From a virus: a DNA stretch of 64,000 bases. The stretch covers positions 78,128-142,127 of the IMG/VR virus record IMGVR_UViG_3300021399_000006; one strand, 5' to 3'. The position numbers and the translations under genes are program-made. The notes below the pieces were generated by a model. The model saw nothing but the letters and a program-made list of their open reading frames with translations, was not told where the DNA came from and searched no databases. This document shows positions 217 to 31,268 of this stretch, piece by piece. Numbering within the stretch: position 1 is the first letter of the stretch; each line of letters opens with the position of its first letter.

Positions 217-2165
217 AATGTCTCCGCAGTATTATTTATCGGTTCCCATCTCCGCATTTTATATTCTTTTACTCTTGCTTTAGACCATGAATTAACTGGT
301 GTATAAAAACCTACAACACGAGTATATGATGTTTCAACTGGCTTTCCGCAAACTGGACATGTTGTACCATAAAAAGCATGATTTTCTTCACAAGCCTGAA
401 TTATTGTATTAAAAGCAAAATATGTAACTCCCGCGTCTGCAATATATTTAACCATTTTATATGCCTTTTCATAAGAATCAAAAGGCGCATCAATGTTTGC
501 ATGAAGGATAGAACCACCGTTACAAAAACTATCAAATAAAGCTTGTACTCTAACTCTCTCTTGTAATGTTGTTTTAATTCCTAATGGAATAAATTGATTT
601 CCATAAAGAGGTAAATCATAAATATTTGCATTGGGATAAAAGAACATATCTTTTTTCATAAGTTTTGCGGCAGCTGTTTCACCAGGAATTTGTTCTGTAT
701 TAATCATATAATCACAATTATAATAACGAATAAATTCATCTGCCGTTTGTCTCATTACTTTAAAGATTTTTTCTCCAAATCTACTTGCTTCTTCTGTATA
801 AAAATTATTTCCTAATTTATCTTTTTGAACATAGCCAAAGCGTTTCATTGTTTCATATATACCGATAAAACCAATAGTATTATATAAATGTTCAAAATCA
901 ACTAATTTATATGAAAAATTAGGAAGTAATTTTTTATCTACATCACGTTTAATAATATTACGAATTACATCAAGAGCCTTTAAATCTAAAAGAACTCGTT
1001 TTTCTAATTCTTCAAGGTACTCTTGCTCTGAATTTGTATCAAGTGCTAAACGCGCTAGATTAATAGTAGAAACTTTTACACTACCAACTTTAAGTGCAGT
1101 ACCTCCAATTGAATTAAAATAGCCTAAATCTCTTATATCACTTTTTAATCTGCAACAATTACTTAGACTATTTACACTATTGTCTACAAAAATATTACTA
1201 TCTGACCATATCATATTATGACGGATAGCCCATTCCGCAAAATCAGGGTCAATAAAATCTCCATTTTGGTAAAGTAATGAAATGGTATTTACAGGAAATG
1301 TAAACATATTTTCACTTCTCGTTTTCGCCATCTATTCCATATACCACTTTTGAAATTCAATAATTTCATCTTCATAATCAATCATAAAAGTCCCGTCTGG
1401 AAATTCTGCTCCACCGAATAGTGCTTCAAAATAAGGCTTATCAAATACTGATGTATTAGTGAAGGCGGATTGCTGTCCATCACGAACATAAGGCTGATTC
1501 ACTGCATAAATAAACCGTTGAAAGTTTTGACGAGCATATCCTTCTGCAGACTCTGATGTAGTTATACCAAGGTAGTCCGCCTATTTATCTTTATTCCAAA
1601 AATAAAACATATATGGAATTAAGTTAGGTAAACCTACTGCTCCGCTACTTCGATTACTTGCAAAACCAATAAACTCTTTTACAAAGTCAACAAAAGTAGT
1701 AAGATGTTTAGCAGGCTTATAATTAAACGGATCTCCTATAAAATAAAGACCCTTTTCCGCCAAATCTTTTAAATCGTAAGCAAAACAATAATGTTTAAAT
1801 GTCGATGTATCTGAATCATGTAAATATAATTCTCCAATCCATTCCGCACGTAACCATTCATTAGCTGTTTTAAACCCATATTTCTTTTGAATTTCATAAT
1901 AAATTTTATTAAAAGCTAAAAGTTTTCTATGCGGTTTAGGCATTTCAGAAAGTAATGTTACCATATCTTTTCGTCTCACATTACTATTTCCATCTATTGA
2001 TACATTTGCTACTGTTTTTTCATCAATAAAATTATCAATAAAATCAGTATAACTTAATTGATCGTCATCGAATCCATTAATTCGTGCAATCTATGTTCCA
2101 AACTATCCTTGCAGTTTATTGTATTGTGTCGTAAAATTTTTTCCAAGTCTAATATTAATTTGCAT
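213..2165 (-). CDS. nrdD: Anaerobic ribonucleoside-triphosphate reductase NrdD (class III RNR), about 651 codons with 4 in-frame TAG
   Basis: Three ORF-track pieces lie in one frame (213..1331, 1581..1979, and an N-terminal extension to ATG 2163-2165). They are separated only by TAG codons at 1332-1334 and 1581-1583, plus two near 2100. The C-terminus has a Zn-ribbon CPVCG and a glycyl-radical motif TRVVGFY. The middle has FTNTSVFDKPYFEALFGG. An SD-like GGAG lies upstream. Confidence 0.75.
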
Positions 2166-2383
2166 TAGTTATAGTTCTCCTTTAACCATTTAACAGCTTG
2201 TCCAAAATCTAATATAGTATCATCTATTTGGAGGGCGGGAACCGATTGAATCCCCAACTATAGCATTTTATCTATGTTTTCATTTACAGTATACTATATA
2301 TTAGTTTTATCTAATTTAGTTTTTAACACTTTACATTTTGGACAATTTGTTGAATAAAATATAATCATCATTTTTTCCTCCAT
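2165..2383 (-). CDS. nrdH: NrdH/glutaredoxin-like redoxin (72 aa, 2 in-frame TAG)
   Basis: Translation reads MEEKMMIIFYSTNCPKCKVLKTKLDKTNI(Q)YTVNENIDKML(Q)LGIQSVPALQIDDTILDFGQAVKWLKENYN. It has a CPKC active site and a VP motif of the thioredoxin fold. Its stop overlaps the nrdD start (TAATG). Confidence 0.55.
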
Positions 2384-2469
2384 TTTATATTTTAAAATCA
2401 TAAAGCATGAATTAATCAATTTTGTTCCTATCGAATAATATGAAGTAAATCAGTTATAATAGGTTGAAT

Positions 2470-2985
2470 CTAATTTGTTGAATTATCAATTACTTTATAG
2501 GAAAAAGGAAGATTTAAAAAATCTTTTTTATCTGATAAAAATCTTCGACATATTTCATTACAATTAGGATTACCTTCTCTATTTAATTGTCTTAATAATC
2601 TAATTTTATCAGGACACCAAATAAAAATAGGAGTACAATCAATTCTATTATTTTCTAATAGCTGTTTGATTGAATTAGGAGAAAAAACACCTACATTAAT
2701 TTTATCTTCTTTTAAAACATCAATAGATGTACCATACCACCAATTATTAAAGCAAGAAAATTCTATCCACTTTTTTAAATTTTCTCCACTCATAAACTCA
2801 TTTGCTGTATTAATAAAATGATAATGTATTCCATCTGCCTAATAAGGTCTTGCAGGACGAGTAGTAGAAGATACAATTTTATTTAAATTCATTTTTGCGT
2901 AAGGTGTCTGAAAAAGGTTGGAAAGGATATAATCCTTTCCAGACCCCGCAGAACCGAATAATGCTATAATTTTATATTTATTCAT
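2470..2985 (-). pseudogene. Guanylate/dNMP kinase-like gene split by a +1 frameshift at a TAA, with one in-frame TAG
   Basis: The N-terminal P-loop piece MNKYKIIALFGSAGSGKDYILSNLFSDTLRKNEFK ends at TAA (about 2878). The rest continues in the +1 frame as ...KIVSSTTRPARPY(TAG)ADGIHYHF...FIEFSCFNNWWYGTS...IFIWCPDKIRLLRQLNREG, which carries the GMP-kinase motifs TTRxPRxG(E)xDG, YGT and RL..R. This is either a programmed +1 shift or a pseudogene/indel. Confidence 0.4.
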
Positions 2986-3190
2986 TATCTTCTTCTCCTT
3001 TTAATAAATAGAGTAATATATCTTTGGCATTATAATTAAAAATATGATAAGGATAAAAACTAAAAACATTATTAAAAATTTTACATTCATGTTTCCATTT
3101 ACATTTATCTTCTTCACATTTACCACCATTATAACATTCAATACACATAATTATAAGATTATAAGGACTCATTATTTTCCTCCATTCCAT
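2978..3190 (-). CDS. Small Cys-rich hypothetical protein
   Basis: 70-aa ORF with CIECYNGGKCEEDKCKWKHEC. Confidence 0.3.
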   Translation of the reverse strand: MEWRKIMSPYNLIIMCIECYNGGKCEEDKCKWKHECKIFNNVFSFYPYHIFNYNAKDILLYLLKGEEDNE

Positions 3191-6100
3191 ATCTTGCGGA
3201 AGCTAGTTCAATCCTTCTTCCATTTACATTCGTTATCAAATAAAGCTGGTGCCCGCCAGTACTTTTATATTTTTTAGCTACGAAAGTATCATCTCGTCTA
3301 TAACCTGTAACTAAAAGTTTATTACCACGAGTAAACCAACCTTTTTCTTTTACTTTTTTAACTCCTTCTTCATTCACTTCACTTATCTGTCTATTGAACA
3401 TTGCATAATAATCACGAGTAAATTTAACATTAACAGTTCCTGTTGGTGTTAAAAGTGTAACTATATGACGTGTATCATTTTTACCGATAACAGTTCCCGC
3501 AATCCTTTGTAACTTATAAATAGGAATTTGTTTTCCATTACGTTTGAAGAAACAATCTACTACGGGAGTTGAAGAAAGATTATTAAAATCTACGATACCA
3601 TAAAAATTATTATCAATATTTTTTAATTCATGGTCGTGATAATAGAAACATAATGATTTCATTTCCCAGAAAGAAATATTTCCTTCTGCATATTTATTCC
3701 ATTCTTCTTCAAAAAGTTTTAAATTTAATTGTTTTAAAACTTCTTGTTGATTAGACTGTAACCAGTTCCGCACTTTATCCATTACTTTTGAATAAATCTT
3801 ATCCCATACCTTTTGTTTTATTACAAAACAATTATTTATAATTTCAATATTCTCCATATCAAAATGGTCGGAATAAAAATTCATACTGTTTTGTTCGGGC
3901 ATTACATAATAATCTTGCCATTTCCTGGCTTTTAAAAATTTATTAAAATAATAAATAGTTTTCTCAAAATCTAAAGACTCTGGTAAAAGGTTATAGTTAA
4001 TAAGAGTTGCCATATTCTGAAGATTTAAACGGGTTTTAGGATTACTAGTTATAGATAAATAATAAACCATAGCCCAAGTACGTGGATCAATATTAAGAGA
4101 TTTTGCATCTTCTCTTGATAATTCATCAAAAGCACCAGCTTTAATTAAACTAATCATTGCCGTTTTATTTAACTTGCATCTATTCATAAAATCTTTAATA
4201 GATACGTATGGACGGTTTTGTTTAATCTGGTCAACAACAGATGCACCTACATTACTCAATGCCTTCATACCGAATAAGATTTGGTTATTTTCTACATCGG
4301 GTTTAAAACCATAATCTGATTTATTAATATCTACTAAACTAACTTTAATACCCGCATTAATAATTTCACCTAATGCTTTTGCAACCTTACCATAATCAGT
4401 CGCATTTTCTTTTTTCTTAATAGGAGTATCATCTTCATCATATTCAATATCATCTTCTTCTTCTTCAAGACTTCCGCTATTTACTACAAGACATGCGGCA
4501 TCCCAATAAATTGGACTCCAATGTGTAGCAATATAAGCAGTTTGAAAACCGATAAAGCTATAAGCTAAAGCGTGAATAATCGAAAAAGAATATCCCATCT
4601 GAGGACCGACGCCATTTTCCCACACATATTTCCCTAATTTTTCTGATGATGCTCGTTCTAGGATTTTTTGATGTAATTCTGGGATTTTACTCATTTGTTT
4701 TTTACCGACAATTTTTCTTGCGGCATTTGCTTCCGCCAAAGTAAAACCACAAATATTCTTATCCATAAGCATTAACATTAATTGTTCTTGTGAAGGTGGA
4801 ACTCCATATGAAGATTTAAAATATGGTTCAAGATAATCTCTTTCATTTGCTGTTAAACCAAATGTATACATTTCTTTATACCAAAGGTCAAGATTATTCT
4901 TATAACGGATATATTTTTCCATAGGTGTTTCCGCACCCTTTTCCGCTGTCATTAATCTCATAAGACCATTAGCATCTGTTAATTCAAGAATTGTTTTCGG
5001 TTTAATCTTTTTAGCGGCCTGACTACCAACTTCTGAATCAAACTGAAATACATTTATTACCGAACCATTTTGAATTGCATCCCATACATCTTTATCGTCT
5101 ATTGGTAAAACATTTGGATGGAAATATTTATCATACACAGGACGTAAATTAATTCCTGTATCTTCTATTATGCCATCTTCTTGTAAAAATCTAATTGCTT
5201 GAGCAAGTTTATCTTGAACTTCTGTAACCAGAAAGTCATATTTAACAAGACCTGCCGCTTCACAATCATGTAGATCATACTGTGTAATTATTTCTCCTTT
5301 TGGAGTTTTCATGAAACATCCAAATTCATATGGATCTTCATCGAAAAGAATTACACCAGAAGCATGACTACTACGCTTATTTACAAGACCAACAATACCA
5401 AAAATAATATCAAGAAGTCCTGGATATTCATTTACTTCTTTAACAAAAGCATGAACAGGTTCTCTATCTTTGTCTTTGTTGCCATTTATAACATCTTCAA
5501 GAGGCCATAAGAATCCTCTCTCTGAAGGAATTAATGATGCTATATATTGTGCTTCATCGTTATCAATACCATCTGGAAATTCTTCTGACCTATATCCGCG
5601 GCAGGCTGTAAGAACTGCTGACTTGGTTTGTTCTGTACCATATGTAGCTACTAAAGTACAACCTAGATTTTTTCGGGATAAATCATCTATATCAGGATTG
5701 AACCTACTGCCGCGCTCTTCTTTTATCTTTCTTACTATTGTTCCTTTTTTCGATGGACATATATCAATATCAATATCACCTAATTCAGTTCTTTCATCAT
5801 TCATATAACGAAAGAAAGGAAGGTTCCATTCAATTGGGTCAAGCTGAGTAATACCTAAAAGATAATGATTTAATGCGGCACATGATGAACCTCTCCCGGC
5901 ACCGACAAGACTTCCGCATTCCCATATCATATCAATATAATATTTTAGTGTAATAGGATATTTAAACATATTTGTTCCAAGTTTTTCTCCTATTACTTTT
6001 TTTACTCTTGCTTCTTCTTCAAGTTCATCCCAGTATTTTCTTAATTTATTTTCCATTAATGGTGAAAAATCCATTTGAGGATTCATTTTATCAATTTGAT

Positions 6101-7136
6101 TTGCACATTCATTTATCCAATATCTATCATAAATATTATCAGATAGATATAATTCATGTAAATTAGGATAAATTTTTTGTTCGTCAAACCAGTCAACATA
6201 CTGTTTAGGATAGTCTTTTACCGGTACGCTTGGAATAGTTTGATTATGAAGTAAATCATATATCTGAATTTTATCAAACATTTCCATACTATTAGCGCAC
6301 ATTTCTTCTATTAATTCGCCAATAGAAGGTTCAAGATTTTTTCTTAAATCATCTTTATCTTGGAGATATGCGTATTCATAAAAAGCATCTGTTTCTCTTT
6401 CTCCCCCTTTAGAATTAAGATATGCTTTATGAATATATCTATCTTCCTTTTTAAGATAATGGGCATCGTCTCCGATTACAATTTTTTTATCATATGAACG
6501 TGCAATTTGAACTAATTTTTTATTTGCAATAATTTGCTCTTTAGATGCTCCTGGAGCAACCTCAATATAAAAATCATTACCAAAAATTCTATCAACGAAA
6601 TCTATAAAATTAATGATTTGATTTTGTTTAATTATCACAGTCTCTTCATCTTCCATATGTCTAGCTTTTTCCATTTCTATAATACAGCTAGATAGTTCAC
6701 CGCCAAGACATGCAGACGTTGCTATAAGATGACCTGGATTCCGCATTACCACTTCTTCTAATTCACTCTTGAGAGTTGGTACACGTTCCATACCTCTATC
6801 CCAATAAGAGTTCATCCAAGCACGCGAAGATAATTGACGTAATTGTTTATGACCTTCCGCATCTTTAGCAATTAATATAAAGTGATAATACTTTATACCA
6901 TTTTGCCTTACATCTGTAAGATATATTTCATTACCTATTGCGATTTTAAAATTTGGGTTTTCTTTTTGAAGTTTACAAACACGAATAGATTGGGCAAGGG
7001 TTTCATGGTCTGTAATAGCCAATCCCGCAAGCCCAATCTCTTTTCCTCGTTTTACGAGGTCTGGTAATTTATTTATACAATCGAGAAGTCTAAAATTTGA
7101 CATCTCTGTATGACAATGTGGAACAAAACGTTGCAT
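3159..7136 (-). CDS. dnaE: DNA polymerase III alpha subunit-like replicative polymerase (DnaE family), 1325 aa, no TAG
   Basis: Uninterrupted 1325-aa ORF. N-terminal PHP domain (HCHTEMSNFRLLD, GLAGLAITDHETL), then polymerase core motifs (GSSCAALNHYLLGIT) and a C-terminal OB region. A perfect sigma70-like promoter and an AAGAGAGG RBS lie upstream. Confidence 0.85.
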   Translation of the reverse strand: MQRFVPHCHTEMSNFRLLDCINKLPDLVKRGKEIGLAGLAITDHETLAQSIRVCKLQKENPNFKIAIGNEIYLTDVRQNGIKYYHFILIAKDAEGHKQLRQLSSRAWMNSYWDRGMERVPTLKSELEEVVMRNPGHLIATSACLGGELSSCIIEMEKARHMEDEETVIIKQNQIINFIDFVDRIFGNDFYIEVAPGASKEQIIANKKLVQIARSYDKKIVIGDDAHYLKKEDRYIHKAYLNSKGGERETDAFYEYAYLQDKDDLRKNLEPSIGELIEEMCANSMEMFDKIQIYDLLHNQTIPSVPVKDYPKQYVDWFDEQKIYPNLHELYLSDNIYDRYWINECANQIDKMNPQMDFSPLMENKLRKYWDELEEEARVKKVIGEKLGTNMFKYPITLKYYIDMIWECGSLVGAGRGSSCAALNHYLLGITQLDPIEWNLPFFRYMNDERTELGDIDIDICPSKKGTIVRKIKEERGSRFNPDIDDLSRKNLGCTLVATYGTEQTKSAVLTACRGYRSEEFPDGIDNDEAQYIASLIPSERGFLWPLEDVINGNKDKDREPVHAFVKEVNEYPGLLDIIFGIVGLVNKRSSHASGVILFDEDPYEFGCFMKTPKGEIITQYDLHDCEAAGLVKYDFLVTEVQDKLAQAIRFLQEDGIIEDTGINLRPVYDKYFHPNVLPIDDKDVWDAIQNGSVINVFQFDSEVGSQAAKKIKPKTILELTDANGLMRLMTAEKGAETPMEKYIRYKNNLDLWYKEMYTFGLTANERDYLEPYFKSSYGVPPSQEQLMLMLMDKNICGFTLAEANAARKIVGKKQMSKIPELHQKILERASSEKLGKYVWENGVGPQMGYSFSIIHALAYSFIGFQTAYIATHWSPIYWDAACLVVNSGSLEEEEDDIEYDEDDTPIKKKENATDYGKVAKALGEIINAGIKVSLVDINKSDYGFKPDVENNQILFGMKALSNVGASVVDQIKQNRPYVSIKDFMNRCKLNKTAMISLIKAGAFDELSREDAKSLNIDPRTWAMVYYLSITSNPKTRLNLQNMATLINYNLLPESLDFEKTIYYFNKFLKARKWQDYYVMPEQNSMNFYSDHFDMENIEIINNCFVIKQKVWDKIYSKVMDKVRNWLQSNQQEVLKQLNLKLFEEEWNKYAEGNISFWEMKSLCFYYHDHELKNIDNNFYGIVDFNNLSSTPVVDCFFKRNGKQIPIYKLQRIAGTVIGKNDTRHIVTLLTPTGTVNVKFTRDYYAMFNRQISEVNEEGVKKVKEKGWFTRGNKLLVTGYRRDDTFVAKKYKSTGGHQLYLITNVNGRRIELASARYGMEENNESL

Positions 7137-7163
7137 TTATTAAACCTCTCTTTAATTTATTAT

Positions 7164-7192
7164 ATAAATATTATATCATAATTTTTATTAAT
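7164..7192 (-). promoter_or_regulatory. Consensus sigma70-type promoter for the DNA polymerase gene
   Basis: On the minus strand: TTGACA, a 17-nt spacer (attaataaaaattatga), then TATAAT. An RBS and the ATG at 7136 follow. Confidence 0.5.
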
Positions 7193-7385
7193 TGTCAAAA
7201 ATAAGACTCGTCTCTTGTTTTTATTTTTCTTTCAAATTCTTTACAAGTTACATAAAATTCAATTATATCAGGACAAAATTCATTATCAAGTTTTCCTTCA
7301 ACCTTTGAAATAATTTCAGGTACTTCAACTTCTGTATATTTACAAACGTTATATTTTTTACAATTTTCACATTCAAAATTAATAT

Positions 7386-7850
7386 TCATATCGGGTACTC
7401 CAATTCCTTACATTCTATTCCATGAAAATTAAAATATTCTTGTAAGTATTTTCTTTCACTACATAAATTATTAGGTGCTTCATATACCATCAAAACGATA
7501 GTATCTTTATTAAATTTATTTAAACAATATTCAAATGCTTTTATCATCGCATTAAAATTAATGGTGTTTAATAATTGTCTATATTCTTTCATACATTCAC
7601 ATTGTCCTCGTAAAGATTCTTTTTCTTCACAAGGACAGTAATGTATTCCTTTAGATTGTACTATAAGTGGTTCATATCTTAAACCGCATATAATACCTCT
7701 TTTATCTATATAATATTCTTGACCTTCTGGTGGTTGATACCAAAAAGGGTCATACATTGCTGTTGAAATAGGTATCATATTTTGTTTGAAGTTACGAATT
7801 TGGTAGAAATAGCTTGTATATATTTTATTTATTCTTTTTGATTTAACCAT
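7386..7850 (-). CDS. Hypothetical protein (154 aa)
   Basis: ORF track; flanked by two small Zn-ribbon ORFs (7195..7389 and 7829..8011, with CxxC pairs). Confidence 0.3.
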   Translation of the reverse strand: MVKSKRINKIYTSYFYQIRNFKQNMIPISTAMYDPFWYQPPEGQEYYIDKRGIICGLRYEPLIVQSKGIHYCPCEEKESLRGQCECMKEYRQLLNTINFNAMIKAFEYCLNKFNKDTIVLMVYEAPNNLCSERKYLQEYFNFHGIECKELEYPI

Positions 7851-8015
7851 TTTTCAAATTCTTCTAAGCAGGTATCGCATAAATCAATTTTTAATGTACA
7901 AATAGGAAATCCTATAGTTTTTGTAATTTGATATTGCGGTAATATGCAATTTTGCCAAGGATGAGGTTCATTATATTCTTTTTTACATCTATCACATATT
8001 CTTTTTATCATTTTT

Positions 8016-9191
8016 TTACCTCACTAATACTAATTTACTACTAGCCCGTGTAATTGCCGTATAAAGCCATCTTGCATGTTCTTCTCTATCAAAAGGGAAA
8101 GATTCTTCTAACACACAAACATTATCCCATTCACTACCTTGGCTTTTATGGACCGTAATAGCATATCCATAAGTAAATTCCATTGGGACAAGATGAGCAG
8201 TTCGCCAGTTAGAAGTAAGTTTATAAATTTTTTTAAAATCTAAACATCTTTCTCCTGTAAGAATTTGTTTTTCATCCATTTGAAGAAAACCAAAATCTGC
8301 ATCACTATCAGATGTAAATTTTGCATTTAAAACTTTAATAATATCGTTTCCTGCCCAACCAGGAACTCTATTATAGGTTTCATATACCTCATCAATATAT
8401 CCAATTGTTCCATTAACAAGAGGGTCATAATTAGTAGCAAGTCTATCCCAATAGTTTCTAAGACAAATAACCTTATCACCATTTTCTGGTTTATTGCCGC
8501 GCCCCATTAAATCTCTCATTTTATTATTAATGGCAACACGTGTTGCATTTGTACCTACTAGTATCTGGTCTGCCCATTTAAGTACACCAGTATTTAAATC
8601 TTTTTTAGGCATAACAATTACATCTGACCCAACAGAATAATCAAAAGATTCTTTATTACGAACTTGCATAGAAAGTCTAATAATTTCAGAGTCTAATGCC
8701 TGTCGCATAATTTCATCAAGAAATACATCTGGATTATTTAATAGACCATTATCTTGATTTTTATCTACTGGCGGAAGCTGGAACGGGTCACCTAAAGCTA
8801 TAATAAATACGTTATGAGAAAAAAGAAGTTCCATTAACTGTTTAGGAGCCATCGAAACTTCATCTACAATAACTACTTTATAATCTATAGTAGCTTTAGG
8901 GATACGGAAAAAAGTTCCATCGGGTTTAGGAATACTCTCATAAAGAAGTTTATGTAAAGTTAAAACATTTTTATTTCCTTTTTTAAGAAGAACCTGTGCG
9001 GCCTTACCTGTATAACAAGCATAAACTACATCTTCTCCAGGATTTATCCCAGGTAAATTTTGAACAATAAATTTTACTAATGTAGATTTACCGGCGCCCG
9101 CATATCCAGATATTACACAATATTTTTCACCATTAATATATTTTTCAATACAAGTTTTTAATCCTTGTTCTTGTTTCTTTGTAAGAATCAT
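8016..9191 (-). CDS. SF1B DNA helicase, Dda/RecD-like
   Basis: Walker A GYAGAGKST, motif II DEVSM, C-terminal VHKSQGSEWDNV. Confidence 0.75.
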   Translation of the reverse strand: MILTKKQEQGLKTCIEKYINGEKYCVISGYAGAGKSTLVKFIVQNLPGINPGEDVVYACYTGKAAQVLLKKGNKNVLTLHKLLYESIPKPDGTFFRIPKATIDYKVVIVDEVSMAPKQLMELLFSHNVFIIALGDPFQLPPVDKNQDNGLLNNPDVFLDEIMRQALDSEIIRLSMQVRNKESFDYSVGSDVIVMPKKDLNTGVLKWADQILVGTNATRVAINNKMRDLMGRGNKPENGDKVICLRNYWDRLATNYDPLVNGTIGYIDEVYETYNRVPGWAGNDIIKVLNAKFTSDSDADFGFLQMDEKQILTGERCLDFKKIYKLTSNWRTAHLVPMEFTYGYAITVHKSQGSEWDNVCVLEESFPFDREEHARWLYTAITRASSKLVLVR

Positions 9192-9457
9192 TATTCATGT
9201 TCTCCTATCGTTTCATCTAAAATTTCACAAAAACGTAATATATCCCGTTTAGCTACATCATAATATTTAGATTTTTCAGATTTATGATCTCTTTGCCATT
9301 CTAATTCAGCCATAGCTTCCCTTGCTCTGATATATCTATATACTAAAGAGTCATATTGATAACCCTTTAATTTTTTTTCATCTTTTTTCGTAAATAATTT
9401 AAAAACAGTATCACCAATTCCTATTTCTTTTATTTCTGTGTCTACAAATTCTGCCAT
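9191..9457 (-). CDS. Hypothetical protein (88 aa)
   Basis: ORF track; start overlaps upstream gene stop. Confidence 0.3.
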   Translation of the reverse strand: MAEFVDTEIKEIGIGDTVFKLFTKKDEKKLKGYQYDSLVYRYIRAREAMAELEWQRDHKSEKSKYYDVAKRDILRFCEILDETIGEHE

Positions 9458-9912
9458 TATTCTTCCTCCAATTTTTTACCCATTCTTAATTTCATTAATC
9501 TACTAATGAATTCTGTTTGAGTAAGAACAGTTTCAGATATTTTATTCCTTCCTATTGAATGAGATAAAATGGCTGGTTTACTAGCTTCTAATGCTTTTTG
9601 AAAACCTTGATTTTTATATAATGCATTGTATGCTTTATTTAATAATAACTGATACTCTTCACTATTTCTTTTATATTCTTTTCCATTCCAGTAAAGAGTT
9701 TGATTTTTTTGCCATTTCTTTTCAGAACCTTTATATTTAGCAGCACGGCCCACTAAAGAGCAAACATATCTCTGCATATCAACATTTTTAAATTTTAATG
9801 ATTGTAAAAATCCTTCCATTGAATTGCATTGAACTCCATCTATTTCAAAGGGGTGAGGTGCAAAATTGCTTAAAGCATTTGAAGGATATTTACCTGTACT
9901 ATTTATATCCAT
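9457..9912 (-). CDS. NADAR/YbiA-like (DUF1768) protein, candidate ADP-ribosyl-DNA glycohydrolase (anti-DarT)
   Basis: Motif ALSNFAPHPFEIDGVQCNSMEGFLQSLKF matches the NADAR signature (SNFxPHPFxxDGxxYxSxEhyfQaxKF). Confidence 0.5.
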   Translation of the reverse strand: MDINSTGKYPSNALSNFAPHPFEIDGVQCNSMEGFLQSLKFKNVDMQRYVCSLVGRAAKYKGSEKKWQKNQTLYWNGKEYKRNSEEYQLLLNKAYNALYKNQGFQKALEASKPAILSHSIGRNKISETVLTQTEFISRLMKLRMGKKLEEE

Positions 9913-9925
9913 TATTTTCTCCTTT

Positions 9926-10180
9926 TTATCTATCTACTATTATAATTTTATATTTTTCTTTATCATTTTTATCTAAACTTTCTATCCATTTATTTACTTT
10001 TTTACTAGGAAAAGTAGGTGATAATGTCAATAAAATTGCATTACCATATTTATCTTTTAAAATTTTTTCATTTTGAAAATGTTGATTTTCTGTAATTCCA
10101 TAAGAAGCAAAATAATAATATACTCTAGTTTCATGTATTAAAATATAATTAGGTTTAGAAAAATATAAAATTTTAGCCAT
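9926..10180 (-). CDS. Hypothetical protein (84 aa)
   Basis: ORF track. Confidence 0.3.
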   Translation of the reverse strand: MAKILYFSKPNYILIHETRVYYYFASYGITENQHFQNEKILKDKYGNAILLTLSPTFPSKKVNKWIESLDKNDKEKYKIIIVDR

Positions 10181-10253
10181 AGTATTTTCTCCCTTTATTC
10201 TTATATTATAATTTTATCATAAAAAAAATAAAAATGCAAAATCGAAATAAAAA

Positions 10254-10289
10254 AGACCAAGACCTAATTTTAAATCAGAATCTTGGTCT
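10254..10289 (-). terminator. Hairpin terminator downstream of the RecJ-like gene
   Basis: 9-bp inverted repeat agaccaaga/tcttggtct, followed on the minus strand by a T-rich tract. Confidence 0.35.
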
Positions 10290-10306
10290 AGCGCGCGCCC
10301 AGCAGA

Positions 10307-12103
10307 TTAAAATACAAAATTGCCTCGGTCTATAACCTAATAGTCCTATATAAAAATTTGAGGAGTTACATTTCCCATCCATTCGTTTTGATGTGCTCTC
10401 CCTATTATATTTAATTCATAATAACCAGAAGTATTCTGTAACATATAACATTCTTCATCAGTTGCTTTAAATTTAATCAATGATATACCTTGCGGAGTAG
10501 TTATTTTTAAAGTGTTATTTTTCTTAACATAAACCGTTACCATATCTGAAGTTACTTTTAAATGTTCAATACATATGAATGGTTCATCTATATCTTTTCC
10601 CCATAAATCCTACATATTAGCAATAGTAAGTATATCATTTGGATTTATATTATTTCCTTGATAAATATAATCTACATAATACATTGCCTAATTAGGCATA
10701 TCTTTTAATAATTCATCTGTTTTTTCTATAAAGGCGGGAATGTTTTTTTGTAATATACCTAAACCAAATGCACCAGGGTGACCTACCTAATACATTGTCA
10801 AACCTGTTTCCGCGCATATACTTTTAAAATCATTTATTCCTACTTTATCACATCCTCTTGCGGAACCTTGATATGATATAGTAGTATATTCATTTACTTC
10901 TTTATAAGGTGGGCAGGGTTCCTTTTCTATAACCTTTGTTAATAAACACGTAGGTCGTTGATATTTAGCCATAATTTTATTTGCAATTAAACCTGCAATA
11001 TTCTTATCAACTTGTCCAGGTTCAAGTAAGAATAATAATACTTTATGGTCTAAAAGATGTTGTTCCTATATCATTCTTTCTATTGTTTGTAACCCTGCCT
11101 CTTGTGCTTTTGTCTGCCTGTTTTTTACATTAGTAACAATTCGCATAACTTGCTAAACAAGCTGTTCTTGCTAACCTAAGAAGTGTCCTCTTTTGGTAGA
11201 AGGTAACATTTTAAACGCTTTATGTTTTAACATAGATTCAAATGTTAATGTTTTTTCTTCTTTTGTTCCACTCCTACAAATAGCATTAATATATGGGGCT
11301 ACATAAAAAGCTACACTCATATGATTAATTTTATTATTCATAGAAAAAGCATTTTTCTCGGATAAATTTACAAAGAATGGATTTTTAAGATTATGAAATC
11401 CTTTATTAATAAGATGTTTTGTTTCAATAGATAGCATAGACATCATATCAGCGCAGTTGCCCAATGCCATTAAATCAGTATAATTATTAGCATTGTTAAT
11501 TTTTAATAAAGAGTCAAGATAACGGCAAAATTGCCAAACAACACCAGCCCCGCTAAAATCTTTATTAGGATAATTTGATAGTTGATTATTTATAACAATA
11601 GCATCAGGATTCTATACGTCACAAATATGATGATCTAAAATAATTGTACTAATACCATTTTGTTTTAAACGAGTGCATTCTTCTATATCATTACTTCCTG
11701 CATCTGGAATAATAACAAGAGAGTATATTTTAGCATTAATTATCCAATCTATATGGTCATTTAATCCATGTTGTTTTCCATCATGTACACGATAATCTAA
11801 ATTAGTTTCTACCCAGGCGGGAAACAGGTCATGTAGGTAATTAATCAAGATTGCAGAACTAGTAAAACCATCAGCATCACTATCAACAATAACTAAACAT
11901 CTATTATTATTTGAGATAGTTTTACTTAAAAGTGCAGCCGCCGCACTTAATTTTTCTTTATCTAATTCCATAAAAGAATTTATATCGTTGTCTGTTGTAT
12001 TAAGATAATGATATACGTTATTATAAGGGACTCCTCTATTAGTTAGAATTTGTTCTATTGTTGAATAACTCTAATTAATAGGATTTATTAATTGATATTT
12101 CAT
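10307..12103 (-). CDS. recJ: RecJ-like DHH-family ssDNA exonuclease, about 599 codons with about 11 in-frame TAG
   Basis: ORF-track pieces 10346..10543, 10787..10972, 11171..11470 and 11612..11971 are all in one frame, joined only by TAG. Motifs are DSDADGFTSSAIL, DHHICDV and a DHHA1-like C-terminus. Ends at TAA 10307-10309. Confidence 0.65.
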
Positions 12104-12186
12104 ATTTTTTGTTACCTTTCTTTTATTATTTTCTCTTCTTTATATGATAACAAAAAAAATTTGAGTTGTCAAATTTACATGACAAC

Positions 12187-13341
12187 TCAAACTGTAATTC
12201 TATTATTGAATAATTCTAAAAAGACATCAGGCCCATTGTCGATAGGGGACATTTTAAAATCTAATAAATGTTCTTTGTCCCATAGAAAACTTATTTGCAC
12301 TTTTGTACAATATTTTTTATTAATACCAATTAATTTCTTAGTCCATTTTTTCCAAGTATCATCCCCTATTTCTTCATATTGTCTATCAAAACCAATTATA
12401 ATTTCTTGCACTCCAAGAGATAAAAGTAAATCAATTTGATAATTAATCAAATTACTTCCACATGCGGCAACTGTAATATCATTCTCGATACCGAAGTAAC
12501 TTTCATATAGGAGCGGACTTTTTTCGCCTTCGAAAATAATAGCTTTTTTTATATTACGTATATTATTTTTACTAACGTTAATATTATATAAGTTAAAACC
12601 TAAAGGATGATTATACATTTTTCCGTGAATAATGGCAGGAATATATTTACCTCTCGTTTCATTTTCTTTAAGTAACGTTCGCTCTCTAATACCAATTAAC
12701 TCTCCATTAATATTATAATGAGGAATAAGTATACCTTGAGTTATAGGGTTATAACGTATATTATGATATTGAATTACCTCTTGTGATATACCTTCTTTAA
12801 TCCATGGGAGTATAATAGGCTGTGGAAAATTTTTTAAAAAATCGCATTGAAAAGTATTGAGAGAGACAATTTGATTACTTGATTTTTTATGTTTTTTTGC
12901 TTCTAATTTTGAGAAAATTTGCCAATCTGGTAATTCTGAATGTTTCTCTGAAAATATTTCATTTGGCGGCTCAATATTAAAAAAGACTGCAACATAATGA
13001 ACAGCATCAGGTAAATCCCATGGGCGAGATACTTTTCTACCTTCTTTAGACAAATAAACTATTTGTTCTTGTGCTGTTGCTTTTATTTTTAAAACAAGTT
13101 CAAATATATCAAAACTATCTTCAGGGCATTGAGTAAAACATTTAAATAATTTTGTATTATCATAATAATATAATTTAAAAGAACCGTGACCAGGCGGATT
13201 ATGACAAATTGTACGTGATATAATTACATCGTGATGAATTTGTGGTTCCCCGCCCATATCAGTAAGGAACTCATATATTTGGTCAATCGTCAAATTATTC
13301 TTTATATCTTCGAGATATTTTTTACGTTCTATATCATTCAT
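12187..13341 (-). CDS. dnaG: DnaG-like DNA primase (Zn finger + TOPRIM)
   Basis: Zn finger CHNPPGHGSFKL...CFTQC; TOPRIM IIFEGEKSPLL...DITVAACGSN. Confidence 0.65.
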   Translation of the reverse strand: MNDIERKKYLEDIKNNLTIDQIYEFLTDMGGEPQIHHDVIISRTICHNPPGHGSFKLYYYDNTKLFKCFTQCPEDSFDIFELVLKIKATAQEQIVYLSKEGRKVSRPWDLPDAVHYVAVFFNIEPPNEIFSEKHSELPDWQIFSKLEAKKHKKSSNQIVSLNTFQCDFLKNFPQPIILPWIKEGISQEVIQYHNIRYNPITQGILIPHYNINGELIGIRERTLLKENETRGKYIPAIIHGKMYNHPLGFNLYNINVSKNNIRNIKKAIIFEGEKSPLLYESYFGIENDITVAACGSNLINYQIDLLLSLGVQEIIIGFDRQYEEIGDDTWKKWTKKLIGINKKYCTKVQISFLWDKEHLLDFKMSPIDNGPDVFLELFNNRITV

Positions 13342-13936
13342 CTTTTTATATAATTTTTATGTAAAATTTTTCGAGTTAAATGATAAGCGTCTATTAAATA
13401 GTTATTTGTTTGAGTTTCACTATTTTTATCTACTATACTTCCTCTACAATGAGGGGTTAATAATTTAGATAATCCTAGCAAAATTATTTCTTGATTTTCT
13501 AAAATTCTATATTCAATATCCGTTATATCTTTCTTTTCTTTTACGTCGTTCATTTTCTTTTGCCTTTATTTCTTTTAATTTTTTACAGCCTTTACCGCTA
13601 CAATTGTTTCTATTTTTGCAATTCCAACAATTGTCAGAGTCCCACCAATACCAATGAGGAGGAGAAGGTTTAGGTTTACGAAATTTTTTCTTCATCTTCT
13701 AATAAAGGTATTATCAATAATATACTTGTTTTTATCTTCTGGAATCTCTATAAGTCTTTTCCATTTTGATAATGGACAATAAGGAAGTTTTCCTTTAGTA
13801 GGATTAAATTTATAACCTCCAGATATTTTTGTCGCACAACAGGTAAGATAATCTCCTTCTTCATATAAGAGAGGGCATTCCCCACAATTTTCAGGAAAAG
13901 GAATATCAATATGTGTTACAACTTCTTCTCTCTTCA

Positions 13937-15475
13937 TTAAAACGCACCTTTCTCTGGTATAACATTAACTTTAAAATCTTCCATTTCAATCAATTCATAA
14001 ACATATGATGTAGCAAAAATAGGATTAATTCTACATGTACCTAAATCCGCTTTACACCATAATAGAATATGATTATATTTACCTCGTCTATTTTTATATA
14101 TAGACATTTTAAGATTAGGAATTTCCATACCCTTTTCAGAACAAAGTTTATTTATAACTTCTTTATCTGCTTCCGTTAAATTAAGTAAGATACTGCCTGC
14201 ATCAATTTTATCAGCAATGGATTTTGCACCACGAAGAAGGTTTTGGTCAAAAATTGTAACGCTAGTATAATCACCATTTAATTGTGTACTTGACATAATG
14301 AAAATATTATTTTCAACAGCAAGGTCTTTAAGTCTAACGCTAATCATAAAAAGAACATTATCTTCTCTTAAACCTTTTACGGATGCGCGAGATGCTACTT
14401 CATGAAGAATTTTCATGCTACTATGAATATAATCTAAAAAGAAATAACTAACGTTATAGCTTCTAATAGAAGTTTTAACTACATTCTCAATATCCTTTAA
14501 AGAGAAATCATGGAGTTCTTTTAAGTATAAAGGACTCTTTTCAATTAAATCAATAGCATGAAGAACCCTTTCTTCTTCGTCTCCAACATATTTATATGTC
14601 AGAATGTGCTCTTCATTTACGCCAGATAGGAAAGCCCACATCATAGTTTGAACTTCATCAAATTCTTGTTCCGTCATAACATACATAGTAGGTTGTGCGG
14701 GACCTGTACTTACCCATTGCTTCTTTTCTAAATCATAAATTTCATCACAACCAATATAACAAGCATCTGCGGCCATTGCTCTGGATTTACCTACATTAGT
14801 TGCTGCTGAACGTAGATAAAATTTACCAAGGCGAGCACCACGAAATACGGTATTGATAAGTCTCCCATATAAAGGATAACCAATATCAGGATTATTTTTT
14901 AATTGTTCAAATAACTGGCGGCCACCTTTACCGGCTTGAATTATACCGTCTGCCGCTCCGCCAGAATAAGATATTTTAATATTATCAATTTTCTCGTCAA
15001 TTAAATCAATGATTTCTTGTTCGGTGTGATTATCTAACCAATCTTCCTGTGCTTGTTTTTTCTTTTGGTCAAAAATATTATTTAAATCATATAACCAAGA
15101 TAAGTCCATACCTATTTCTTCGTTATATAATCTAAGTAGTGTCATCTTTTTTAGGCGGTGGTAATAATAATTAAATGCGGCAACCTGTGAGTTTTCACTT
15201 ATCTTTTCAAGATATTCTGACCCTCGATTGGCTTTATATACAGCTAATTTTTTTGGTCTTGATTCAAGATAATCTTCGATGTTAGCAGAAGATATTTTTC
15301 TAACACCTAATTGATGTAAATTATATATACTACCAAAGATAACTTTATGAAATTCTTCTATAAAGTCGTCAAGAGTAAAAGTATACTGTTCATCTTCTAA
15401 TATCTAAGGATTTTGATACACACTACCTATAATTTGAATTATTGCAGAGGTATCAGTATATCTAACTTTACTCAT
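13937..15475 (-). CDS. dnaB: DnaB-like replicative helicase (SF4), about 513 codons with 1 in-frame TAG
   Basis: The ORF-track 402-aa piece carries a Walker-A-like GKSRAMAADACYIG. It extends upstream through one TAG to ATG 15473-15475, adding a DnaB-N-like domain (MSKVRYTDTSAIIQIIGSVYQNP(Q)ILEDEQYTF...). Confidence 0.55.
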
Positions 15476-15716
15476 TTGTTACCTCAACTGTATAGAAAAA
15501 TTCACTATGTGAGCCTACATCAATCCAAGTCTTTTTGTTGTCGTTTTCATCTTTCCATGTTCTATGATAATACATAACAAACTTATGTGAGTTATTTTCA
15601 TTACACTTATTGATAAAATCTTGGATATGTTTCATAACAAATCCTTCTTGGCAAGTAGCAATAAGAGTATCATTTTCAAATCTGTCAGAAAAATATAAGT
15701 TTACCATATTATTCAT
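15468..15716 (-). CDS. Hypothetical protein (82 aa)
   Basis: ORF track; stop overlaps the dnaB start (ATGAGTAA). Confidence 0.3.
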   Translation of the reverse strand: MNNMVNLYFSDRFENDTLIATCQEGFVMKHIQDFINKCNENNSHKFVMYYHRTWKDENDNKKTWIDVGSHSEFFYTVEVTNE

Positions 15717-16209
15717 CTCCTAAATCTAAGAGGCGGGGAGCAGGTCTTTGAGGCTTTGGGGGTACAATATTGAATTCAATAACCTGCTGCCGCATTTGTT
15801 TGTTACTATTTTGATACTGTGTTGTATATAACTGTTGATAATATTTCCTTACATCTTCATATATATAAGGAATAATACCAATTCCGCCATGACCTTCTTC
15901 TAAATTGCCATGATTAATATTATAAAACCAATGTAAACATCCTGTCATACCGCTCCAGGTATAGCCATATTGTTTTATAAAATTTAAGGCTTGTTTATTA
16001 ATCATTACATAATTATAACCTGGTCCGTATATACTTTTTACACATTTAAAAAAATTCTCTTTATCAATTTCCTCTTGTTTAACACTATCGTCTTGAGACT
16101 CTGCACACTCTTTATGAGCATATCTTCGTGCTCCTACTTTAACAAAAGGTTCTTTATCTCGGTCAAAAGATTTTCCGCAATAAAGACATTTCACCATATG
16201 TACAGCCAT
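15709..16209 (-). CDS. Hypothetical protein with N-terminal zinc ribbon
   Basis: CLYCGKSF...HKEC. Confidence 0.3.
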   Translation of the reverse strand: MAVHMVKCLYCGKSFDRDKEPFVKVGARRYAHKECAESQDDSVKQEEIDKENFFKCVKSIYGPGYNYVMINKQALNFIKQYGYTWSGMTGCLHWFYNINHGNLEEGHGGIGIIPYIYEDVRKYYQQLYTTQYQNSNKQMRQQVIEFNIVPPKPQRPAPRLLDLGDE

Positions 16210-16256
16210 TTTATTTCCTCATTTTTATTTTTATTATATCATTTTTTTTATAAAAA

Positions 16257-16288
16257 AACAAGGTAGTGATTTATATCGCTACCTTGTT
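16257..16288 (-). terminator. Intrinsic terminator after the Sak4-like gene
   Basis: 13-bp stem aacaaggtagtga/tcgctaccttgtt with loop tttata, followed on the minus strand by a T-run. Confidence 0.5.
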
Positions 16289-16293
16289 ATTAA

Positions 16294-17280
16294 TTATTGT
16301 CTATCTTTAAATAATTCTTTTAAATCAAAAACAATTAAAGATAACTGTTCTGTTTGGTCTCTTGTAATATTAGCAATCTTTTTACCTTTACCTAAATATT
16401 TATCGGTAATTTCAGTAATATAAGGTGCGTAATGTACTTCTTCTTCTTTTGATAGAGAGGATAAAAGGTCTCGACATTGTGCGTAAAGATCATCAAAGTT
16501 AACTTCTGTAGAATAAATACTAACATTTCTCTCATTAGTAACAAATTCTTTTCCAGTATATTTAGCTTCTTCATCTATTGCTTTATTTAAACCATCAACA
16601 AGAGAATCATAAGAAAAATTAACTTCTGACTACATATATTTAAAACGAGATCCACAATCAATCGTGCCATCAAGAGAACGTAAAGTTAGAACTCTTTTAG
16701 GTTCGCCATCTCTAATTGTAAGATGTGCATAGCCATAAATATCAACCATATCCTTAATAATTAAATTATAACTATTACCAAGGGTAGGAACAATTTGATT
16801 ATATTCTGTTCCGTCTTGTCTTTTAAAAGTTTTATCTTTATCGTGAGAGATAAAAAGTACAGCATATCCCATTTGAGTTACTTCTCTGAAGGTATCTTCT
16901 AACTATCGTTTTACTCTTGACCATCCTTGACCATAAGGAATTTGATTAAGTGTATCAACTCCTGCTTGTGAAATAATATATTTCTAACATGCGGCAGCTG
17001 CTATGTCAATTGTATCTACAATAATAGAATGGAATAAATCTTTTACTTCTGGCTTTTTTAAATCTCGTAGAATTATTTTCATATCTGCCCAGGTTGTAAC
17101 GTCCTGTGCATATACATTTGGTAAGGCATTATAACCTTTCTAAAAAGCTAAAATAAGAGCACCTGGCATCTGACTTCCAAATGTCGTTTTACCAATTTTA
17201 CCAGGGCCGTATATATAAGTAATATAACCACTTAAATCTCTACTGACTTTATGTGGTTGAAGTTTTGTTAAATCAATCAT
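16294..17280 (-). CDS. Sak4-like RecA-family ATPase (ssDNA annealing/recombination), about 328 codons with 4 in-frame TAG
   Basis: Starts MIDLTKLQPHKVSRDLSGYITYIYGPGKIGKTTFGSQ. The ORF-track fragment 16630..16872 is in the same frame and joined by TAG. Ends at TAA 16294-16296. Confidence 0.55.
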
Positions 17281-17367
17281 GTTTTCTCCTTTACTATTTT
17301 CTTATTTCATACTCACAGTAAACACAAATAACATAGGGAAGGTATCTTCCCTATGTTATCATTTTTA

Positions 17368-18363
17368 TTACCAGTTAGGCATACCGCCAAAATTAAAAGT
17401 TCCTTGAGGGATATTACCCATTGTATTAGGGGTAGGCATTGCCTGGGGAGTAGGGGCTGCCGCACCAGCATTTCTCTGTGCGTAATATGCTTTTGCATTA
17501 GCCTTAACTTCTTCCAGATGAATATTTCTATCAGTAAGAGCCTTATTTAATTCATCTTTTGTGATTGTTTCTGCAATATCAAAAATATAAGGCTGAGGTT
17601 GTGCCCATGTAATAACCCATTCTCTTTCTTGACGAACAGAAGAATCAACAATTGTTCCACCAAAAGCATTTTCCATTACTTTATCAATCTTAACGGTAGT
17701 ATTAATAATTTCTCCCATAACCTTAGTATAAACAGGATTATTGGCAGAAGCATTAAGACCAATAAAATAATTTACAGAACCAGGTGCTTTAGAATCTTTT
17801 GCAATTAAAACAATAGGTAAGATTGCATTTTTAAAATCAAATACATATGCTTTAATTCTAACAAAATCTTCTTGGATATTATGTTCAGGATCCGCAGGAA
17901 CTACAGTAGTATCATAAATGATAGTGTCAAAAGTAAATTTATTTCTTGCGTTTTCAACAGGATTTAAATCAGAAATAAAAGTTACGAAACCACCTTCACT
18001 TCTTTGACGTGTTACAAGTTGGTCTCCACCTTGAGGATAAAAATCATTCAAAGCAAGAGAAGGTTCTACTCTCAACTTCTGTGCGGCATCCTTTCCTACA
18101 TTAAGCCATGTTTTTCCATTTTCAAGAATTTGTTTTAAATTAACAAATGTACTATTGACTGCATTTGCCTTTGTAAATTCTTTTACAAAGGTATAATGTA
18201 CAGGGATTACATTCAATCCTTCTTCATCTGTTGCAATAAAGATTTCTCCTGAAATAAAATCAAGACCATAAAAAGCTGAATTTTTATTAGTAACTTTTTT
18301 CATTTCAAGTTTGTGGTCATAAAGTCTTCCTTCAATTTTCTAAGCATTAATATTTTTTCTCAT
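17368..18363 (-). CDS. Hypothetical protein (about 331 aa, 1 in-frame TAG), Gly/Pro-rich C-terminus
   Basis: ORF track 17368..18303, extended through TAG to ATG 18361-18363, which has a strong GGAGAAAAAT SD. Confidence 0.4.
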
Positions 18364-18450
18364 ATTTTTCTCCTAATTATTTTTTCACATTTATGTTTTC
18401 TTTTTTACTTTATATTAATATTATATAATAAAATTTTATAAAAATCAAAT

Positions 18451-19311
18451 TTACTGATTAAACAAAATTAATTCTTCGGCATAAGGTAAAGTTTTCACCC
18501 AATTACAAAAGTCTTGACTCCATTCAGTAAGTTTATGATTTTTACGTTGTCCATACATATTTCGTAATGTTTCATAGTTTGCTGTCCAAGTTCTAGTTTG
18601 TAGCCATCCCTCAGGAAGCCAACGTATAAGTTCTTTCCAATATTTTTTATCTTTTGTTTCAAGATACCGTTTTCTAAGAGTTTCACATATATCAATAATA
18701 TAATCTATACAGTCATCGGTGGTATCATCAATAGTATATGGTTCACCATTAAAAATAACTATATCTGAATTATAATCTCCCATTTCAAAACAATCTTTAG
18801 TAATAGGAGTACTAGCTAACTTATGCATTGTTGATGTTGAATTAGCAACTGTTGATACTTTATAAGTATCTGCCTCCTTCCACCAATACAACGGTGCAGT
18901 TATGTCAACAGAAACAAAAATTTGACGAAGAAATTTTCTATCACTTGAGCCAGCTTTAATCATACGTTGCGCTAAATCTAAATCTTTTGGACCTAATAGA
19001 GCTAAATCAAAAATTGTCGTTCCATTATCATCTTCTGATAAAACACTATTTTTTATAAGCCAATCTATATAGCTATCTTCTAATCTACAGTATTCAAGGC
19101 TTCCTTCTTCGATTACTTTTTGATTATTTTTTTCTGCTTTAATATTATAATCAGTTATCCACTCATGCGCAACTAAAAGAGTTGCTTCATAACTATACTC
19201 TTCAGGATACATTCCAAAACCACTATCACTTTTTCCCCAACTTTCAAGAGGATTACGTAAACCGCGGAAAGCACCTTCGAAATTCATTACTTTAGTATTC
19301 TCAAATTTCAT
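18451..19311 (-). CDS. Hypothetical protein (286 aa)
   Basis: ORF track; start overlaps the stop of the GIY-YIG gene (TAATG). Confidence 0.35.
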   Translation of the reverse strand: MKFENTKVMNFEGAFRGLRNPLESWGKSDSGFGMYPEEYSYEATLLVAHEWITDYNIKAEKNNQKVIEEGSLEYCRLEDSYIDWLIKNSVLSEDDNGTTIFDLALLGPKDLDLAQRMIKAGSSDRKFLRQIFVSVDITAPLYWWKEADTYKVSTVANSTSTMHKLASTPITKDCFEMGDYNSDIVIFNGEPYTIDDTTDDCIDYIIDICETLRKRYLETKDKKYWKELIRWLPEGWLQTRTWTANYETLRNMYGQRKNHKLTEWSQDFCNWVKTLPYAEELILFNQ

Positions 19312-20267: not shown

Positions 20268-20276
20268 TATATTAAA

Positions 20277-20306
20277 GAACGGGTTAAGTATAAAAACTTA
20301 ACCCGT
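20277..20306 (-). terminator. Perfect 11-bp inverted repeat (hairpin) between the 20318 gene and the GIY-YIG fusion gene
   Basis: aacgggttaag ... cttaacccgtt, followed on the minus strand by a U-rich stretch. Confidence 0.4.
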
Positions 20307-30720: not shown

Positions 30721-30721
30721 A

Positions 30722-31222: not shown

Positions 31223-31268
31223 TTTTTCTCCAAAACGAGGGAGAGATAATCTCTCCCTCTATTATTTA

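Follow-up and report, generated by a model that had tools for sequence, protein, structure and literature searches.

Background

The closest described counterpart of the gene examined here is gene 30.3 of bacteriophage T4, whose product Johannesman et al. (2025) renamed AdfN, for anti-DarT factor NADAR (PMC11825919). DarT1-modified DNA is freed of ADP-ribose by T4 AdfN in vitro, T4 lacking adfN is sensitised to DarTG1, and the substitutions E36A and K43A impair rescue (PMC11825919). In vitro, T4 gp30.3 hydrolyses G-ADPr and not T-ADPr (PMC11125620); it is not among the NADARs listed for reversal of C-ADPr (PMC12945103), and DarTG2 is not countered by it (PMC11825919). The allele of phage RB69 is naturally truncated, lacks the last helix and is inactive (PMC11825919). 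The full effect of T4 AdfN is seen only during T-even infection, for which a T-even factor is possibly needed, and the T4-type proteins, which occur mainly in the T4 superfamily, may have been "domesticated" to such a factor (PMC11825919).

Three positions organise the comparison of NADAR proteins. Catalytic roles have been described for a glutamate and a lysine (PMC11825919, PMC11543638). A residue on the last strand separates the subfamilies: it is histidine in the phage gp30.3 NADARs, glutamate in the YbiA type and aspartate in the DarT1-linked or DarG1 type (PMC11125620, PMC11543638, PMC12945103), and both Schuller et al. 2023 (PMC11543638) and a 2024 study in Toxins (PMC11125620) define the phage NADARs by the last-strand histidine. 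AdfN-Bas32 and AdfN-Bas60, from T5-like and Vequintavirinae phages, are also phage orphan NADARs that counter DarTG1 enzymatically. They neutralise DarT1 even when no phage infects the cell, and they belong to archaeal-like and bacterial non-YbiA NADAR clades (PMC11825919).

The DNA analysed here, referred to as "the window", is a stretch of 64,000 nucleotides (positions 78,128 to 142,127) of the IMG/VR virus record IMGVR_UViG_3300021399_000006. A preliminary description, made from the letters of the window alone, had proposed that an open reading frame at 9457-9912 encodes a NADAR protein acting as a counter-defence against DarT-type DNA ADP-ribosylation, and that it sits among replication genes next to a Dda-like helicase. 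Both the family and its function were already known; the 151-aa protein described below adds one more member, and what is new is the kind of phage that carries it.

Results

The gene lies on the minus strand at 9457..9912, and its identification as a gp30.3/AdfN-type phage NADAR gene draws on the ORF list and sequence, the Pfam family PF08010, the alignment to T4 gp30.3 and the NADAR fold. It begins with ATG at 9912..9910, ends with TAA at 9459..9457, carries no in-frame TAG, and has a Shine-Dalgarno-like AAAGGAG (9919..9925, minus strand; read from the sequence) 6 nt 5' of the start codon. The reading frame, with start, stop and ribosome-binding site all in place, is real. Its stop overlaps the start of a downstream 88-aa ORF in the sequence TAATG, and directly 5' of AAAGGAG is the stop (9926..9928) that ends the 84-aa ORF upstream. 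These limits agree exactly with the preliminary description, which had not given the strand, and the motif SNFxPHPF...DG...S.E that it had cited is found in the protein as S15-N16-F17-A18-P19-H20-P21-F22, D25-G26 and S31-M32-E33.

The only Pfam match found by hmmscan for the NADAR protein is PF08010, "Bacteriophage protein GP30.3" (Phage_30_3), with 192.6 bits (E 3.3e-57) against a cutoff of 36 bits; the alignment joins residues 8-143 to profile positions 1-137 of 138. The preliminary description had pointed to PF08719 as the family to look for. That profile was not reported in the direct Pfam search, and the family found in its place is no unrelated one, PF08010 being the NADAR superfamily's phage branch. 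In PHROGs the protein falls in phrog_652, which is annotated as of unknown function, and in PADLOC it has a weak match (E 9e-4) to PDC-M42C, a component of a candidate system. Some members of the family match PF08010 and PF08719 together, and hhalign joins the alignments of the gp30.3 family and the YbiA/PF08719 family with 94.5% probability (E 7.4e-8, 96 columns, residues 13-119). Searches of PDB sequences with the single sequence and with a profile gave nothing significant (YbiA, E 0.75), so that the link to NADAR proteins needed profile-profile and fold comparison.

The AlphaFold2 model, built with 36 sequences as input, has a pLDDT of 86.9 and a pTM of 0.84. It is made up of two beta-hairpins and six helices, among them a predicted C-terminal helix at residues 132-143 (9484..9519, minus strand), and it places residue 117 in a strand or bridge. 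When the model was compared with the PDB by Foldseek, the top three structures were E. coli YbiA (2b3w; E 4.7e-5, TM 0.63, the best match), a Phytophthora NADAR with ADP-ribose (8bau) and the NADAR of G. lovleyi DarG1 (8bat), and no credible match was seen beyond these. Structures of YbiA, Phytophthora NADAR and G. lovleyi DarG1 NADAR proteins are also the structural homologues given for T4 AdfN (PMC11825919). As modelled, the protein has the NADAR-superfamily (YbiA) fold.

The residues on which NADAR chemistry depends in other proteins have counterparts here. By pairwise alignment, E33 (codon GAA, 9814..9816, minus strand), K40 (AAA, 9793..9795, minus strand) and H118 (CAT, 9559..9561, minus strand) correspond to E36, K43 and H123 of T4 AdfN. 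E33 is the equivalent of the catalytic glutamate (PnNADAR E43, E. coli C7 NADAR E88), K40 that of the phosphate-binding catalytic lysine (PnNADAR K50, C7 K95), and H118, in the context AILSHSIG, that of the last-strand histidine of phage NADARs. All three are invariant or nearly so among 36 close homologues (alignment A1), in which H118 is invariant, and each is kept in 90% or more of 51 diverse representatives, whose identity to the query is only 40-59% (alignment A4). In the hhalign alignment H118 is paired with H126 of YbiA, the neighbour of catalytic E125, and not with E125 itself; the exact structural equivalence of the histidine thus rests on published analyses rather than on hhalign. 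By its PF08010 match and histidine signature, the protein is classified as a member of the T4-type clade.

Comparison with the described systems places the NADAR protein closest to T4 gp30.3/AdfN in type. The two are of nearly the same length (151 and 152 aa), each is a single, core-only domain, and they are 44% identical over their full length (BLASTP E 1e-36, query 1-143 to T4 4-149 of 152). The catalytic glutamate and lysine, the subfamily histidine and the C-terminal helix are all kept, and both are stand-alone "orphans" from which a toxin partner is absent. In sequence, however, the copies of KP15-like Klebsiella phages (about 62%) are nearer to it than T4 gp30.3 is; across KP15-like phages of Klebsiella and Enterobacter, identity is 60-63%. 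Its T4-type clade differs from those of AdfN-Bas32 and AdfN-Bas60. Several differences set the protein apart from the DarG1 antitoxins (the BC4488 family, including G. lovleyi NADAR 8bat and E. coli C7 NADAR): identity is only about 14%, the N-terminal extension is lacking, the last strand has histidine in place of the catalytic aspartate, and DarT is not adjacent. Identity as a DarG1 antitoxin was considered and rejected, given that the neighbours are the 84- and 88-aa ORFs, RecJ and the helicase, that the protein begins at position 1 of the profile, and that it has His and not Asp. E. coli YbiA (2b3w; PF08719/TIGR02464) is 20% identical.

The gene is under strong purifying selection. Against the 87%-identical orthologue of a sister phage, dN/dS is 0.06-0.08 (about 0.07), and the NADAR protein is more conserved between the two phages than the proteins around it (87%, compared with 76% for the polymerase, 73% for the helicase, 70% for RecJ and 61% for primase). 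The C-terminal 38 residues are 100% identical in the two orthologues. Recent recombination was considered as the source of this identity and rejected: the DNA of the same segment is only 88-91% identical, which argues for constraint.

The carrier is an uncultured phage with 30% GC and a genome of about 125-145 kb; in several metagenomes the exact NADAR protein recurs, with its neighbours, on contigs that reach about 125-145 kb. No match was found by megablast when window positions 1-25000 were compared with 50,697 phage records, and the phage therefore has no close cultured relative. Tail and tail-fibre proteins are encoded on the plus-strand half of the window. The minus-strand half is a large module for replication and nucleotide metabolism; it encodes NrdD, guanylate kinase, a 1325-aa PolIII-alpha, the Dda-like helicase and the NADAR protein, together with RecJ, primase, DnaB, AAA_24, YorF- and YorH-like proteins, an NAD-dependent ligase and topoisomerase II. 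The replication module (1..20300, minus strand), especially 3159..7136, is similar to the one in Bacillus phage SPbeta: identity between the YorL-type PolIII-alpha and SPbeta yorL is 38%, and the order YorF, AAA_24, YorH, DnaB, primase, RecJ, polymerase is as in SPbeta. The NADAR and helicase genes stand between the RecJ and polymerase positions of this order.

Translation of the window indicates that TAG is a sense codon in this phage, since fragmented ORFs fuse into full-length genes when it is read through. The genes concerned include those for RecJ (598 aa, 10 TAG; 10307..12103, minus strand), NrdD (4 TAG; 213..2165, minus strand), three tail-module proteins (22, 13 and 11 TAG; 36285..39170, 39172..41244 and 42000..44588, plus strand) and a 318-aa protein (21 TAG; 19311..20267, minus strand) whose counterpart on the near-identical contig L002 has a GIY-YIG domain. 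The NADAR, helicase, PolIII-alpha, topoisomerase II and ligase genes are TAG-free. A suppressor tRNA with the anticodon CTA was not found within the window. The endolysin (27847..29319, minus strand; 8 in-frame TAG) combines a GH25 muramidase with CHAP and GW domains, and this architecture, together with NrdD, suggests that the host is probably a Gram-positive anaerobe. The taxonomies of metagenome-assembled genomes (MAGs) containing matching contigs gave inconsistent host assignments.

Around the NADAR gene, the minus strand carries a compact string of genes. Upstream lie the 84-aa ORF (9926..10180), which has no Pfam or PHROG match, and the RecJ-like DHH exonuclease gene, for which PF01368 and PF17768 were matched on an orthologue. 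Downstream lie the 88-aa ORF (9191..9457), which has no family match and is found only in the closest relatives of the phage, and the 391-aa Dda-like SF1 helicase (8016..9191; phrog_325, E 4.3e-94; Pfam AAA_30 and UvrD_C_2). Five small neighbours (84, 88, 60, 154 and 64 aa) had no Pfam or PHROG match. The placement among replication genes that the preliminary description had proposed thus holds, and its Dda-like helicase is confirmed by phrog_325, but the two genes are not immediate neighbours, being separated by the 88-aa ORF. In the sister phages with 87% NADAR identity the 84- and 88-aa ORFs are absent and the helicase directly follows NADAR. In every close relative the NADAR gene is part of a conserved string of replication genes, and its adjacency to the helicase is confined to this phage lineage.

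A near-consensus sigma-70-like promoter (12172..12144, minus strand; 11/12) is found upstream of RecJ, behind a 14-bp hairpin terminator, the pair spanning 12193..12144. This promoter may drive the string RecJ, 84-aa ORF, NADAR, 88-aa ORF and helicase, in a scan whose overall yield was at chance level (53 sites, compared with 46.5 expected from shuffling) and from which two near-consensus sites stand out. A perfect extended sigma-70 consensus (TTGACA, 17-nt spacer, TG, TATAAT) lies at 7198..7170 (minus strand), just upstream of the PolIII-alpha gene.

Several features elsewhere in the window were recorded in passing. A tRNA-like gene at 62924..62999 (minus strand) was assigned a 4-base anticodon, "gcat", by ARAGORN; its anticodon stem CCCCC/GGGGG closes on an 8-nt loop, UUGCAUAC. 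The Rfam tRNA model did not call it at the gathering score and did call its neighbours Arg-TCT, Arg-ACG and Trp-CCA. Close to this tRNA cluster (62768..63175) is the gene of a 502-aa protein (60243..61751, minus strand) with DUF2828, DUF7788 and weak VWA matches, and between the two lies a 272-aa ORF (61975..62793) with no family match. A putative RNA-repair trio at 30175..32516 (minus strand) encodes a Metallophos phosphoesterase of 181 aa, an AAA_33 kinase of 166 aa and a 415-aa RNA ligase that has a PHA02142 OB domain, and recalls the Pnk/Rnl system with which T4 counters anticodon nucleases. An 833-aa protein (33032..35533, minus strand) matches major-vault-protein shoulder and repeat domains and the SPFH/Band 7 domain, and has no PHROG match. 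A tail-fibre-like gene for a 1287-aa protein (52023..55886, plus strand) is in a region with a GC content of 42.5%, compared with about 30% elsewhere, which suggests that it was acquired recently or forms a receptor-binding module of distinct composition.

The family to which the NADAR protein belongs is large and widely scattered. Homologues number 3643 at 90% clustering in a set of 5.8 billion proteins, and 1117 representatives remain at 50% clustering (E of 1e-3 or better). Among 50,697 phage records, 1510 carry the family; T4-like phages infecting enterobacteria, Aeromonas, Acinetobacter and Vibrio make up the majority, and phiCbK-like phages of Caulobacter and Brevundimonas have it as well. 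Contigs assigned by binning to many phyla of bacteria and archaea also carry genes of the gp30.3 type (loci L009-L088), and GroEL or ABC-F genes close by give some of these loci a chromosomal look. A number of longer proteins in which the domain occurs with FtsW, LRR, Lgt or GDSL extras were set aside; they are heterogeneous, and were judged uninformative or gene-calling artefacts.

No conserved partner gene accompanies the family across these loci. When ten neighbours from the window were compared by tblastn with 87 loci, they were present in the phage's own lineage only and in none of the 80 further genome or MAG loci, and clustering of 966 neighbour ORFs from 74 loci yielded no recurrent family besides NADAR itself. 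A census of 142 immediate neighbours in the 80 other loci found 138 Pfam families, the 25 most frequent of which did not include DarT, although an occurrence at a single locus might not show among these 25. The commonest was ADP_ribosyl_GH, an ADP-ribosylglycohydrolase (PF03747), which adjoins NADAR in just four loci, including L010 (10701..11861). By its behaviour across loci the family is a mobile, stand-alone "orphan" gene, and this partnerless behaviour fits an enzymatic eraser that has no need of a cognate toxin.

Discussion

The reading that we consider well supported, and probably correct, is that the NADAR protein is an AdfN-type enzyme that clears ADP-ribose from guanine in phage DNA and so acts against DarT1-type toxins. 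The PF08010 match, the similarity to T4 gp30.3, the catalytic residues and the modelled fold all lend support to this reading, which is also that of the preliminary description. By homology to T4 AdfN, the protein would bind ADP-ribosylated guanine in phage DNA and hydrolyse the N-glycosidic bond that links guanine N2 to the distal ribose, freeing ADP-ribose and restoring the base. If the PnNADAR-ADPr structure (PMC11543638) is taken as the guide, the distal ribose would have E33 and H118 on either side, and the pyrophosphate would be held by K40.

The position of the gene suggests when such an enzyme would act. If transcribed with the replication genes for RecJ, the Dda-like helicase and the YorL-type polymerase, it would be at hand during the copying of phage DNA, when that DNA is single-stranded, which is the substrate state that DarT1-type ADP-ribosyltransferase toxins attack. 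As an "orphan antitoxin" it would erase the damage and not bind the toxin, and for that reason it could be effective against whichever guanine-directed DNA ADP-ribosyltransferase the host has. Replication would then proceed although a DarT1-type toxin of the cell had been triggered. On this reading the host would carry a DarT1-like system. The carrier departs in several respects from the setting in which this function is established for T4. It is a phage with TAG as a sense codon and SPbeta-like replication rather than a T4-like myovirus, and the gene lies between those for RecJ and the helicase, whereas that of T4 lies in the ligase/30.x cluster. Since the carrier is not T-even-like, any partner of the kind that T4 AdfN appears to require may be missing or different.

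The same chemistry could instead be directed at another target in a Gram-positive host, either RNA or the product of a guanine transferase other than DarT1 (pierisin/ScARP-like, YarT-like, or a toxin still to be discovered). The discussion in PMC11825919 makes the point that an enzymatic eraser acts independently of the toxin's structure, and the part of PMC12945103 that cites PMC11833690 states that all NADAR families tested, that of T4 included, remove G-ADPr from RNA also. The phage is Firmicute-like in its GH25, CHAP and GW endolysin, its SPbeta-like replication and its NrdD, and DarTG1 may not exist in such hosts; the spread of the family over contigs of many phyla with no DarT neighbour in the census points the same way. 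Yet action against DarTG1 is the only in vivo function shown for the gp30.3 subfamily, and nothing in the window indicates a specific alternative toxin. We therefore regard a different target as unlikely, and retain clearance of guanine adducts made in DNA by DarT1-type toxins as the preferred reading.

Much less probable is a role in degrading soluble, low-molecular-weight ADP-ribose derivatives, such as immune signals or RNA-repair by-products, in place of adducts on nucleic acids. Iyer et al. proposed this for most phage NADARs (PMC9503650, sections 3.4.3 and 3.7.4), this phage carries the RNA-repair set at 30175..32516, and the only ADP-ribose-related proteins among immediate neighbours elsewhere are ADP-ribosylglycohydrolase (4 of 142) and NUDIX (2 of 142). 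Against this, ADP-ribosylated DNA is a direct substrate of T4 gp30.3 in vitro and in vivo (PMC11825919, PMC11125620), and the NADAR gene is about 20 kb from the RNA-repair genes, inside a DNA-replication string.

A housekeeping N-glycosidase of the YbiA type, detoxifying intermediates of the riboflavin pathway, is more improbable again. The fold is common to E. coli YbiA and the NADAR protein, and residues 12-50 match TIGR02464 weakly (E 2.8e-4), but the score is 21.2 bits where the cutoff for that family is 73.7 bits, the alignment by hhalign stops at residue 119, and the YbiA-invariant C-terminal residues E125, T127, D130, W133, D135 and G136 are without counterpart in SHSIGRNKISETVLT; the window showed no riboflavin genes. 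Least credible of all is that the protein reverses or balances the work of the phage's own ADP-ribosyltransferase, as might be imagined from the location of T4 gene 30.3 within about 3 kb of alt and from the early expression of T4-like NADARs together with ADP-ribosyltransferases (PMC9503650), since T4 Alt and Mod act on proteins or RNA ends and not on guanine bases, and no such enzyme was seen among the scanned proteins, which are a part of those encoded in the window of a genome that extends beyond it. The T4 experiments, the sub-threshold YbiA score, the absent YbiA residues and the lack of an ADP-ribosyltransferase among the scanned proteins are what disfavour these last three explanations.

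The main value of the analysis is a confident annotation: the family's function being established, the gene can be read as a counter-defence gene against DNA ADP-ribosylation. A constrained T4-type copy in an unrelated phage, recoded at TAG and with SPbeta-like replication, is also a natural test case for the AdfN co-factor hypothesis. That an AdfN of the T4 (His) type is functional in a phage otherwise unlike the T-even phages is a tentative and somewhat doubtful proposition. If it is true, the T-even potentiating factor proposed for T4 AdfN would not be generally required, or would be supplied by a generic replication component, the obvious candidates in this lineage being the neighbouring Dda-like helicase and the co-translated small protein of 88 aa. 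A further consequence would be that Gram-positive anaerobes make significant use of ADP-ribosylation of guanine in DNA against phages, a mechanism so far undescribed in them. The family as a whole, with about 1100 clusters at 50% identity, on contigs binned to many phyla, and no conserved partner, hints at guanine-directed DNA ADP-ribosylation defences well beyond the enterobacteria.
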